From Escherichia coli O157:H7 (GTDB lineage: Bacteria > Pseudomonadota > Gammaproteobacteria > Enterobacterales > Enterobacteriaceae), in assembly GCF_013167455.1 (NCBI RefSeq), contig NZ_CP038328.1: a DNA stretch of 64,000 nt; one strand, 5' to 3'. Made by a program: the position numbers and the translations under genes. Of this stretch, positions 26,502 to 29,254 are shown piece after piece; within the stretch, counting starts at the first letter, position 1, and every line of letters starts with the position of its first letter. Under the pieces are notes generated by a model that saw only the letters and a list, made by a program, of their open reading frames with translations, searched no databases and was not told the origin of the DNA.

Positions 26502-26824
26502 ACTTTCAGGTCCCTCTCATGTAACCAGTGGGTTGCACGCAGCCTTGCGTTTTCCTCACCGGCAAGCAGTGCGCGGATAATCCCGACCGCCTCGCTGTCG
26601 TCGTCCTTCACCGCGGTATGAAGCGTTATCCCCCGGGCCACGCCACGCTTTATCGTGATGACGCCTTTTTTCTCCAGTGCGCGAAGATGCTCCACCGCTG
26701 CATTCACTGAACGGTATCCCAGCATGGTTGCCACCTCCTGATTGGTTGGCGGGAAGCCACGTTCTTTCTGATAAGAAATCAGCATATCCAGCACCTGCTG
26801 CTGGCATTGAGTTAACGTCGTCAT
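26498..26824 (-). CDS. LexA DNA-binding-domain-like protein lacking the S24 peptidase domain
   Basis: 108 aa; ..QQQVLDMLISYQKERGFPPTNQEVATMLGYRSVNAAVEHLRALEKKGVITIKRGVARGITL.. aligns along the LexA N-terminal winged-helix domain; no Ser/Lys peptidase region. Confidence 0.65.
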   Translation of the reverse strand: MTTLTQCQQQVLDMLISYQKERGFPPTNQEVATMLGYRSVNAAVEHLRALEKKGVITIKRGVARGITLHTAVKDDDSEAVGIIRALLAGEENARLRATHWLHERDLKV

Positions 26825-27474
26825 GCCGCCATCTCCCTGACCAGTTTTTCTGCCTGCTGGCGAACCTGCGCCAGAAAGGCCTCACCACATGCCTCAAGTT
26901 CATAGCGCCCGATGTAGCTGATTGCCGGTCCCTTCCAGGTCTTGTCGAAAACAGCAATAGCACCAGCGAAGAAAGCGCCTGTCGGCACCTGCTTCTCATC
27001 CTTCGGGATAAACCAGGCAGGCAGTTCAAAACCAATACGCCCGCGAATAAAAGCAATATGATCTGCATCTTCCGGCCACCACACTTCGCTGGTGGCAGCT
27101 TTGATCAGGAAAACATAGCGCCCGCCTTTATCACGCATGGCACTGGCATGCTTCATGATGTAACGCATGCCGGTGATGTATTGCCCCTCATGCTGACTGG
27201 CGCGGCTGTATGGGGGATTACCAAAGGCAGCACCTTTAAGCTCCGCAAGACGTTCTGACCAGTCATGCGCCAGCGCGTTGTCTTCCGCAGTGTAATAAGC
27301 GGCACATTTGGCGTTATCACCGTCAGTGAACAGATCCAGAACAAACGGGCCAAACAGGGTGTTAATTCCCCAGAAAATGTTGTCCGGCGTGCGCCACTGA
27401 TCGCCCACTTCCTTCAGTTCATGGGCTGGTTTGTTCCGCAGCTCCACCAGCGCCTGGCAATATTTATTACTCAT
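26821..27474 (-). CDS. Phage N6-adenine DNA methyltransferase (Dam-like)
   Basis: Start MSNKYCQ... at 27474 (TAATG overlap with upstream gene); contains NPPY catalytic motif (AAFGNPPYS). Confidence 0.8.
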   Translation of the reverse strand: MSNKYCQALVELRNKPAHELKEVGDQWRTPDNIFWGINTLFGPFVLDLFTDGDNAKCAAYYTAEDNALAHDWSERLAELKGAAFGNPPYSRASQHEGQYITGMRYIMKHASAMRDKGGRYVFLIKAATSEVWWPEDADHIAFIRGRIGFELPAWFIPKDEKQVPTGAFFAGAIAVFDKTWKGPAISYIGRYELEACGEAFLAQVRQQAEKLVREMAA

Positions 27475-27968
27475 TAAGCCCCCACGTAATTCCCTGACAG
27501 ATACCACTCTTCACCCGATACAGCGCGCTTGCTGCTTTTCCGTAAGCACCGCTCACGACGCGCCAGAAAATTGTTTCGTTCTGGCTGGGAGTGGCTTTCA
27601 CGGAATGCCGCCATCCACACCGTTGCAGCACGACGGTATAAGCCCCTGGACTCCAGTTCTTCAGCCTGGCGGGTCAGGCACAAAATCACCCGGGGATCGT
27701 TAGTGCCGACATAGAAATTGCGCACAGGTCTGGTTTCACGAACTGGTTGTGGTTCCGGCTCCTGCGCTCTCTCAGTCAGGCGCGGGAAATGTCTGCGTGT
27801 ATCCCCTTCACAACGGTGAGCCACACGCCCACTCTGACGTAACTTGCTTGCAGACTGCAGAACGCGCTGCCGTGAGTAACCTGCAAAAGCATCCGCAATG
27901 TCTCCGGAAGTACAGCCCGGATGGGCTTCAATGAATTTCTGAACGTCATTCAAAAGACTCATGCTCAC
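27474..27968 (-). CDS. Hypothetical regulator, PerC/Pch-like C-terminal region (tentative)
   Basis: 164 aa; ..ELESRGLYRRAATVWMAAF.. resembles the PerC family signature; assignment from memory only. Confidence 0.4.
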   Translation of the reverse strand: MSMSLLNDVQKFIEAHPGCTSGDIADAFAGYSRQRVLQSASKLRQSGRVAHRCEGDTRRHFPRLTERAQEPEPQPVRETRPVRNFYVGTNDPRVILCLTRQAEELESRGLYRRAATVWMAAFRESHSQPERNNFLARRERCLRKSSKRAVSGEEWYLSGNYVGA

Positions 27969-28906
27969 CCCCTGAATCCTGCCGGGATCTGGCTGTAGTC
28001 CACGTTGTCGTAACTGGCTTTGAAGTACGGGTCCTCGCGTTTTTCGGTGTACGTGCTGACGGACGGCGATAAGCGCAGGGAAAGCTCATCCCATTTTTCC
28101 CGCAGCTTCGACGGGCTGAGCACGTTACGGCACCAGAACGGATCGCGACTGACGCGGCTGTACATCTCGCAGATTTGTTTATGAGTACGACCATCCTGCA
28201 CACACATCAGGCGAATTTCGTTTGCCCAGGCTGTCCAGTTCGGTTCTTTGGGACGAACCACCTCGCCGTCACATTCGGCGGCATGCTCGTACAGGGCGAT
28301 GATTTTTTTCCAGAGCCACTGTGCACAGGTCAAATCATCCTGCGTCCCCCACTGGCGCTTTTTAGGGCTGAATACAACCGCATCAGGATGGCGAGTTAAA
28401 AAATCCTGTTCATCCGTCTGCGTGTCCGGTTGCGAAGCGTCCGGACGAGAAGGTTTTTTATCTGACGGATCATGTTTTGATTTTACTGACGGATCCCCGC
28501 CAGATTCTGACGGGTGAAAACCCGCTTTTTTGCCAGATTTCGACGCATCAAATTTTGACGGGTCAGATTTTGATGCGTCAGATTTTGACGGGTCAGAATC
28601 TGACAGTTGAGAAAATGCCGCTGCCTGAAGCTTCGCAACGTTAAGCTGATAAACATTCGACGCATTGCGGTTACCCTGGCGACGCGCCTTACGCGTTAAC
28701 CAGCCTTCTGCTTCCAGCCGTGCGATAGCCGTTCTGACGGTGCTCATCCCCGCGCCAATCTGGCGGGCAATGGTTTCAATTGATGGCCAGCACACACCTT
28801 CGTCATTACTGAAATCAGCCAGGCGGGCCATAATTGCCACGCTGGATAACTTCATGCCTGACGCAGCGCAACCATCCCATACATAGCCGGTTAATTTAGT
28901 GCTCAT
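27965..28906 (-). CDS. Replication initiator (lambda O-like) with internal iterons
   Basis: 313 aa; N-terminal winged-helix region, central repetitive SDSDPSKSDASKSDPSKFDASKS linker encoded by the iteron array. Confidence 0.7.
   Translation of the reverse strand: MSTKLTGYVWDGCAASGMKLSSVAIMARLADFSNDEGVCWPSIETIARQIGAGMSTVRTAIARLEAEGWLTRKARRQGNRNASNVYQLNVAKLQAAAFSQLSDSDPSKSDASKSDPSKFDASKSGKKAGFHPSESGGDPSVKSKHDPSDKKPSRPDASQPDTQTDEQDFLTRHPDAVVFSPKKRQWGTQDDLTCAQWLWKKIIALYEHAAECDGEVVRPKEPNWTAWANEIRLMCVQDGRTHKQICEMYSRVSRDPFWCRNVLSPSKLREKWDELSLRLSPSVSTYTEKREDPYFKASYDNVDYSQIPAGFRG
28450..28610. repeat. Iteron array / phage origin of replication inside the initiator gene
   Basis: About eight imperfect direct repeats of the tttTGACGGGTCA type at roughly 18-19 bp spacing. 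Confidence 0.7.
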
Positions 28907-28915
28907 GACCGACCT

Positions 28916-29254
28916 CTATTTCCCTGAATTTACGACGAAACTGTTCGAGCGGGCTGAAGCACTCATGCTCATAGCCTTCGCGGAGGTAGATAACCCGTTG
29001 TGTTTCCGGTTCCCAACGAATGACTCTGACGGGCACTCCGTAGTGATCTTTGAACCAGCGGTTAACTTGTCGCAAAGGACTGTCTCCTTTTGCCTGTTGA
29101 AATCACCCACAGCCCACTCTGCAAAGCTGTGGGTTACAATTTCCCTGTCACCTGGTACATTCACTGCATAGCAATACTCCACCTTCGCTTTTCCACCCGG
29201 TACAGGAAGTGCAATCAGTTGCGAGCGACGGTAGTGTGTTGTTAAACTGTTCAT
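28916..29254 (-). CDS. Hypothetical early protein (e14 YmfM-like position)
   Basis: 112 aa ORF between the CII-like gene and the replication initiator. Confidence 0.4.

Follow-up and report, generated by a model that had tools for sequence, protein, structure and literature searches.

The 64,000-nucleotide stretch of Escherichia coli O157:H7 DNA analyzed here (contig NZ_CP038328.1; hereafter the window) contains a prophage with an O-like replication initiator gene on the minus strand. The segment at about 28410-28618, embedded in the linker-coding part of that gene, is probably the replication origin of the prophage. This reading is favored because the constraint on the DNA far exceeds the footprint of SrsR, the host regulator that binds the E. 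coli K-12 copy of these repeats, and because the repeated dyads track the recognition helix of the phage protein. It is also favored because initiators of other types carry other repeats at this place, and the order of dyads, AT-rich stretch and palindrome is that of lambda ori.

Repeats in the linker-coding part of the initiator gene

The gene and the candidate origin within it are located as follows.

27965..28906, minus strand: replication initiator gene, an open reading frame (ORF) of 313 amino acids
~28410..28618: block of synonymous-site conservation (codons 99-161), the candidate origin as a whole

A search of the plus strand with the 10-mer TGACGGGTCA, allowing at most 2 mismatches, gave six copies, at 28463, 28487, 28508, 28556, 28571 and 28586; further copies resembling it at 28541 (CGACGCATCA) and 28601 (TGACAGTTGA) needed 3 mismatches. 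The 12-mer GTCAGATTTTGA (≤2 mismatches) had 16 matches in the 64 kb compared with 5.7 ± 2.4 expected, a number that none of 100 shuffles reached, and 8 of the 16 fell within 28499-28604. The repeat cluster is non-random and far from chance. Tandem Repeats Finder reported periods of 15 (4.3 copies) and 30, and a repeat finder returned start-to-start spacings of 15, 15 and 15 together with many inverted repeats. From 28463 to 28601, successive copies were spaced 24, 21, 33, 15, 15, 15 and 15 bp apart, all multiples of three and in one reading frame.

The original prediction placed about eight imperfect repeats at 18-19 bp spacing inside the gene of an O-like initiator, where they would encode its repetitive linker as at lambda ori. 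The placement was confirmed, as 28450-28610 lies within the ORF and encodes the repetitive linker peptide (...SDSDPSKSDASKSDPSKFDASKS...DPSVKSKHDPSD, also given as SDSDPSKSDASKSDPSKFDASKS...ESGGDPSVKSKHDPSD). The count of eight holds loosely, with six copies within 2 mismatches and two that need 3, and the spacing of 18-19 bp is contradicted by the distances above. The assignment of core and spacer also had to be given up: the center of the supposed core (TGAC-NNN-TCA, the free codon x of S-D-x-S-K) is variable, and the supposed spacer GATTTT is nearly invariant.

Synonymous sites are almost frozen across the repeats

A first scan of IMG/VR gave only 99-100% identical copies, useless for divergence, and a Genome Taxonomy Database (GTDB) genome scan together with a scan seeded with one divergent member was used instead. 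From one-genome-per-species bacterial assemblies 62 loci were fetched, from genera including Citrobacter, Enterobacter, Kluyvera, Yersinia, Rahnella, Pantoea, Erwinia, Proteus and Providencia. All fetched loci encoded 2-7 SDxSK-type pentads followed by F(H/D)P(S/P)ESGGDPSV.SK.DPS.

Over about 60 homologues, synonymous change had nearly saturated in the part that codes for the DNA-binding domain, but codons 99-161 barely varied at synonymous sites. At positions of the DNA-binding domain the most frequent codon made up a fraction of 0.3-0.8 (60 Enterobacterales homologues), rising to 0.9-1.0 between codon 99 and about codon 161, with positions such as Ser TCA (59/59) and Val GTA (59/59) fixed and the middle codon of each pentad alone free. 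Mean codon homozygosity in 49 dereplicated sequences was 0.40 for codons 2-97, 0.83 for codons 99-161 and 0.47 for codons 162-195 (Mann-Whitney test of the block versus the two flanks, P = 5e-20 and 1e-10). The same contrast was seen in a single pair: the window gene and that of Citrobacter phage phiNP (83% nucleotide identity) differ synonymously at 39 of 86 same-residue codons in codons 1-98 versus 2 of 45 in codons 99-153 (Fisher P = 3e-7), and all ten amino-acid changes in codons 99-153 lie between repeat cores. Codon usage in the pentads departs from that in the rest of these genes: TCA makes up 86% of the Ser codons in the pentads versus 21% outside them, AAA 236/237 of the Lys codons versus 66%, and GAC 80% of the Asp codons versus 41%, whereas the Asp of the DPS blocks is GAT (60/60).

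An overlapping gene was rejected as the cause. The other sense frames were always stopped, the antisense frames were open in 0, 17 and 29 of 59 homologues, and the ORFs at 28477-28644 (+) and 28483-28665 (-) are artefacts derived from the repeats. Because the codons are frozen and no alternative frame is conserved across the block, some 200 bp of DNA must be under purifying selection as a DNA element, in addition to being constrained as coding sequence. The SDxSK peptide repeat then appears to be the translation of the iterons and not the selected feature.

Anatomy of the candidate origin

The homologue alignment and a census of dyads gave the conserved unit as a 13-bp dyad, GTCAGAWTCTGAC, which reads nTCA(A/G)A(A/T)TCTGAC on the coding strand; its three free bases are the center of the core first proposed. 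In the direction of transcription, the parts of the element in the window are as follows.

28592..28604: dyad S1, GTCAGAATCTGAC, a perfect 13-bp palindrome and the first site in the direction of transcription
28577..28589: dyad S2, GTCAGATTTTGAC
28562..28574: dyad S3, GTCAGATTTTGAT
28547..28559: dyad S4, ATCAAATTTTGAC
28532..28544: dyad S5, GCCAGATTTCGAC, degenerate
28496..28514: 19-bp palindrome CCCGCCAGATTCTGACGGG, containing dyad S6 (28499-28511)
28481..28495: direct repeat R7, coding strand GATCCGTCAGTAAAA, with an invariant GATC at 28492-28495
28454..28471: direct repeat R8, coding strand GATCCGTCAGATAAAAAA, with an invariant GATC at 28468-28471 and an A-tract
28448..28487: the 40 bp with the highest AT content in the middle part of the gene (70% AT), reached directly after the dyads as the gene is transcribed
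28424..28446: inverted repeat GTCCGGTTGC-GAA-GCGTCCGGAC, with 10-bp arms and a 3-nt center

The 19-bp palindrome encodes the invariant P-S/P-E-S-G-G, and codons 130-141 are 0.8-1.0 fixed. In most homologues the S6-type dyad stands 48 bp from the last dyad of the array. A terminator-like hairpin, CGGGTGAAAACCCG then CTTTTTTG, was seen between S6 and S5 at 28511-28524 (+), antisense to the initiator gene; it may be fortuitous, because the spacer codons beneath it are among the less conserved of the block.

R7 and R8 have the common form GATCCGTCAG(T/A)..., and codons of the R7 region are fixed as GAT (60/60), TCA (51/51) and GTA (59/59). The two GATCs are kept in 60/60 and 53/53 homologues through the choice of GAT, where the pentads use GAC, and they are the sole GATC sites in 28300-28750. 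Given that the module has its own Dam methylase, methylation control of the origin is possible. The 70%-AT stretch was not picked up by a 40-bp composition profile at step 20 and was found in a later scan. The inverted repeat that follows was paired in 85.3% of cells among 43 homologues versus 78.0% in shuffles (0/500), with five pairs changed on both sides and no G-U intermediates; slid controls were 12-35% paired.

The dyads covary with the recognition helix and move with the N-terminal domain

All loci with the recognition helix GAG-R-STV-I had dyads of the form TyCAGAATCTGrA, and all loci with GAG-x-STV-R-T had dyads ending ...TCTGAC; the two outermost dyad positions change symmetrically. 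Mosaic relatives separate the two halves of the gene. Phage phiNP has the N-terminal domain and repeats in common with the window gene and a different C-terminal domain. Phage mEp460_4F5 has the C-terminal domain in common from just after the repeats, and a different N-terminal domain with its own 23-nt repeats in the same place; the units read CATyrGGTCAyTTTGACCCGATG at about 23-bp spacing (L002 3034-3167). SfV has a third type, with GTGAATCTCCTGCACTACC-type units at the equivalent position (L003 2950-3054). The repeat tool used on these loci also recovers the four annotated iterons of lambda. The homology breakpoints with phiNP and mEp460_4F5 overlap at 28428-28464, the distal edge of the repeats, and the candidate origin thus appears to be the module junction of a mosaic initiator.

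Proteus and Providencia members have, directly behind the repeats, a segment that matches the right arm of lambda ori at 46 of 57 positions (L086 3467-3523 versus L147 1148-1204). This segment includes ...TTCGTCRSAGAATTCTGGCGAATCC... and encodes a lambda-like SSQNSGESSDQ peptide. By its layout it would be a hybrid origin, with the dyad array in place of the lambda iterons.

Copy number was plastic, from 2 to about 20 units. One IMG/VR locus (L211 1017-1370) has about 20 units with a 30-bp super-period. Deletion variants also exist (proteins P0084 and P0102): in one, from E. coli, the 15-bp array is gone entirely while S6 and the GATC repeats are kept, and in another both the wing and the array are lost. 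Numerous proteins in the databases are labeled 'partial' and end in the repeats; these are suspected assembly breaks, because there are up to 4 copies per genome.

The initiator protein

From its N terminus, the product has a winged-helix domain, the linker encoded by the repeats, a C-terminal domain like that of lambda O and a tail resembling the end of DnaT; the domains and the tail are encoded as follows.

28609..28906, minus strand: N-terminal winged-helix DNA-binding domain, aa 1-99 (AlphaFold and Foldseek)
28076..28414, minus strand: C-terminal domain, aa ~165-277, homologous to the C-terminal (P-binding) domain of lambda O
27968..27994, minus strand: extreme C-terminal tail SQIPAGFRG, 8/9 identical to the E. 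coli DnaT end SQIPPGFRG

The name O-like, already given in the original prediction, was borne out by a full-length match to PHROG 391 'replication initiation O-like' (E 4e-135) and by the C-terminal domain, which matched lambda O in BLASTP (E 7e-26, 31% identity). Pfam identified HTH_36 only (E 4e-11; HTH at aa 23-70), and the NCBIfam search gave nothing specific. In the AlphaFold model (pLDDT 86) the N-terminal domain has a winged-helix topology, with the predicted recognition helix at aa 54-67 (STVRTAIARLE...) and the wing at aa 70-88. Foldseek with this model returned generic MarR/ArsR-like winged helices (TM 0.6-0.67) that are not Rep-specific, and no Rep or lambda O structure was among the matches of Foldseek and the PDB sequence search, which were generic MarR-like winged helices only. 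No homology was found between the N-terminal domain and that of lambda O (hhalign probability 1.7%), and the Pfam domain Phage_rep_O is absent. The likeness to lambda ori stands for the position in the linker, the selection at the DNA level and the covariation of repeats with the DNA-binding domain; it fails for the N-terminal domain and for the lack of a P-like loader.

A tail of the form P-x-GFR(G/S) was found in about 38 of 58 homologues, as well as in SfV-type and phiNP-type proteins with unrelated C-terminal domains, and is thereby common to three C-terminal domain types that are unrelated to one another.

A proposed mechanism and the points that weigh against it

In the mechanism we propose, dimers of the initiator N-terminal winged helix would bind six head-to-tail 13-bp dyads (nTCA[A/G]A[A/T]TCTGAC), of which S1-S5 follow at 15-bp steps and S6 lies 33 bp further, in the 19-bp palindrome. 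The resulting nucleoprotein complex would destabilize the adjacent 70%-AT stretch that holds the two GATC-bearing direct repeats, next to the palindrome with 10-bp arms, and transcription of the initiator gene would run through the site, as at lambda ori. Because no P-type or DnaC-type loader gene is present, the host helicase would probably be recruited via the C-terminal part of the initiator, perhaps via the DnaT-like tail. Initiator binding, unwinding and helicase recruitment are steps that we only infer.

Several points weigh against the origin. The repeats are a demonstrated protein-binding array in vitro, but the sole experimentally demonstrated binder is SrsR, a host factor and not the initiator, and no replication assay or initiator-DNA binding data for this initiator family were found in the literature searched. 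The geometry is unlike that of lambda, with contiguous dyads at 15 bp (~1.4 helical turns) in one reading frame, and because all spacings are in one frame, in-frame slippage could also have made the array. At 70% AT, the AT-rich stretch falls short of its lambda equivalent (80%), and scans of 28300-28750 for DnaA boxes and the IHF consensus found none. The covariation of helix and dyads may reflect a single evolutionary split, which makes it supportive, not decisive. The steps downstream of binding are conjecture, with no helicase loader evident.

SrsR boxes and other explanations of the array

In E. coli K-12, the strongest genomic SELEX (gSELEX) peak of SrsR (YgfI), a host regulator of the LysR type, lies in the 'yfdO/yfdP spacer' of the cryptic prophage CPS-53 (PMC9181523, 2022). 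In vitro, this K-12 copy gave a multi-step gel shift and a 66-bp DNase I footprint over four boxes (TCAaATTTTGa, TCAGATTTTGa, TCAGATTTTGa and TCAGAgTcTGa), and yfdONMLK mRNA was down in the srsR mutant and up on SrsR overexpression (PMC9181523). Iterons or an origin are not mentioned there. The 'spacer' in its legend extends from yfdO to the yfdP initiation codon, and we infer that a yfdO start downstream of the array was used. The current RefSeq record of K-12 places the array inside an N-terminally truncated initiator pseudogene of CPS-53, adjoining yfdN; this is yfdO of the older literature (PMC9181523).

The four K-12 boxes (L150 2749-2806) are the K-12 copy of window 28548-28603, that is, S4-S1. 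The window copies of the 11-bp box TCAGATTTTGC are TCAAATTTTGA, TCAGATTTTGA (twice) and TCAGAATCTGA, and three of the four are identical to K-12 boxes: S2 and S3 to TCAGATTTTGa and S4 to TCAaATTTTGa, with S1 corresponding to box 4, TCAGAgTcTGa. In the window the array lies inside an intact ORF and not in an intergenic region upstream of a promoter. SrsR orthologues were found in Escherichia, Citrobacter, Kosakonia, Klebsiella, Yersinia, Hafnia and Sodalis; among the matches listed there was no close orthologue from Proteus, Providencia, Pantoea or Erwinia, genera in which the module is found, and this is weak negative evidence.

The array could on these data be primarily an SrsR site, on whose 11-bp boxes oligomers of the regulator activate the downstream prophage genes (perC-like, dam and others). 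The in vitro binding, the mRNA effects, the identity of the boxes and the spread of SrsR orthologues over several Enterobacterales genera speak for this, yet we regard it as unlikely. In intact prophages the boxes are in the middle of an ORF, no sigma-70-like promoter was found in a scan of 28250-28950, and the 'intergenic' status in K-12 is an artefact of the N-terminal truncation. The constraint at the DNA level covers about 200 bp, well past the 66-bp footprint; the dyads covary with the recognition helix of the phage protein itself, and other initiator types have different repeats at the same position. The four genera lacking a listed close orthologue carry the module too, though this counts weakly. 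SrsR binding may instead be an added layer (a host factor, a competitor or a domesticated function) and not the reason for the array. With the array read as an origin, the top genomic target of SrsR would be the iteron array of a relic phage origin and not an ordinary promoter.

Some other cis-acting nucleic-acid element, such as an mRNA structure, a translational-pausing signal or a single-strand initiation or primosome-assembly hairpin that works without initiator binding, would agree with the compensatory changes in the conserved palindrome and with the primosome hint in the DnaT-like tail. As an account of the whole element it is improbable: tandem dyads at a fixed 15 bp, symmetric half-site changes and a footprint on duplex DNA fit double-strand recognition, and the palindrome has no G-U intermediates. 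It could hold for the palindrome alone, as a part of the origin.

More improbable still is that the conservation is not selective and marks a mosaic junction which frequent recombination or gene conversion has spread, leaving it young and uniform. Such a history would agree with the homology breakpoints shared with phiNP and mEp460_4F5 where the array ends (28428-28464), with copy numbers from 2 to about 20 units and with the deletion variants. A recent sweep, however, would not leave variable positions that are periodic (the x codon every 15 bp) with amino-acid changes between cores. The fixed codons are also the same in hosts as far apart as Proteus, Yersinia and Erwinia, although the flanks have nearly saturated, and the changes in the palindrome are compensatory, not identical. 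That the peptide alone matters, as a flexible Ser/Asp/Lys-rich linker with the DNA repeats a by-product of in-frame duplication, suits the low-complexity peptide and the spacings in multiples of three but is barely credible in view of the frozen codons (Ser TCA 86% versus 21%, Lys AAA 236/237 versus 66%, and the GAC/GAT split of Asp).

Gene neighborhood and occurrence

The prophage that carries the window array is apparently complete, with an intact initiator gene. Upstream of this gene are cI-, cro- and cII-like genes, and downstream are PerC-like, Dam, LexA-DBD, RusA and KilA-N genes. A P-, DnaC- or DnaB-like loader gene was not found in the module (ORF list and Pfam), and phiNP and SfV are likewise without a loader. 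A PerC/ANR-family gene, the yfdN homologue (27474-27968, -), directly follows the initiator gene, its start overlapping the initiator stop, and occupies the position of lambda P. The dam gene (26821-27507, -) is within the replication module. On the other side, a small DUF4222 gene (28896-29075, -) overlaps the initiator start by 11 bp, and this gene accompanies the initiator in plasmid and chromosome matches from several genera.

Initiator genes 98-99% identical to that of the window are present in the isolated, propagating phages SfII, SfIV, PhiR29_1, Kati and SKA5. The conserved block was found in 2103 of 5426 complete E. coli genomes, and the module occurs also in prophages across Enterobacterales and in Shigella serotype-converting phages. 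A search of plasmids for an autonomous replicon using this initiator was uninformative: the matches were prophages in large replicons, and the 15-kb 'plasmid' OR902851 has a truncated initiator fused to unrelated sequence.

Comparison with known systems and significance

A lambda-style origin layout is known, and the SrsR boxes are published, unrecognized as origin repeats; the repeat and initiator type found here is not described in the literature searched. Searches on Eru replication types, SfIV, lambdoid iterons and the repeat sequence gave no description of this origin, and the replication of non-lambda modules is treated there as unknown. The replication module is very common, and a defined origin would be a cis element for mapping prophage induction and building replicons, also usable for testing incompatibility between co-resident prophages.

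The closest known system is lambda ori in gene O; the lambdoid phages phi80, 82 and P22 have counterparts of it. As in lambda, the candidate origin is inside the initiator gene between the DNA-binding and C-terminal domains (repeats at codons ~100-150), dyad-symmetric repeats are followed, as the gene is transcribed, by a stretch that is AT-rich but less so than that of lambda, and beyond it by a palindrome; repeats and N-terminal domain go together in mosaic relatives, and the C-terminal domain is homologous. Lambda has four 18-bp iterons, spaced 20, 24 and 23 bp and in mixed frames, with its 80%-AT stretch directly after iteron 4, whereas the array described here has six 13-bp dyads, five of them at 15-bp steps and all in one frame. 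The HTH_36-type N-terminal domain, the lack of a P gene and the DnaT-like tail also set the window initiator apart.

The SrsR boxes of K-12 CPS-53 are literally the same sequence as window S4-S1, but there the initiator gene is truncated and the array was read as intergenic promoter DNA, whereas the window gene is intact.

Iteron plasmid origins (pPS10 RepA, F RepE, R6K pi) have a winged-helix initiator and tandem binding-site repeats beside an AT-rich region; plasmid iterons are about 17-22 bp long, non-coding and usually accompanied by DnaA boxes. The initiator described here is likewise modeled as a winged helix, by a fold match that is generic and not Rep-specific, but its repeats are coding and 15 bp apart, with no DnaA box in 28300-28750. 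Replisome-organizer genes of Gram-positive phages hold origins as well, such as SPP1 oriL in gene 38, where the initiator binds repeats in its own gene; the likeness is one of arrangement, and hosts, repeats and partner proteins differ. Most family members have PF09524, named 'conserved phage C-terminal domain' by NCBI, instead of the lambda-O-like domain, and we take PF09524 to be DnaD-like.

The last comparison is with E. coli DnaT, whose tail SQIPPGFRG resembles the initiator tail SQIPAGFRG, with no similarity outside it; RefSeq names some of these phage proteins 'primosomal protein', and the DnaT literature searched states no function for the extreme C-terminal tail. The initiator tail may be a mimic of a host primosome contact, which we offer as a lead and not a finding. 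If so, the DnaT tail would be the contact through which DnaT brings in DnaB/DnaC or other primosome partners. It is conceivable, although we find it doubtful as a whole, that the element is the composite origin of a widespread, undescribed Enterobacterales prophage replicon, in which iterons common to the initiator and SrsR couple replication to host physiology or restrain it, and in which mimicry of the host DnaT tail stands in for a phage helicase loader.

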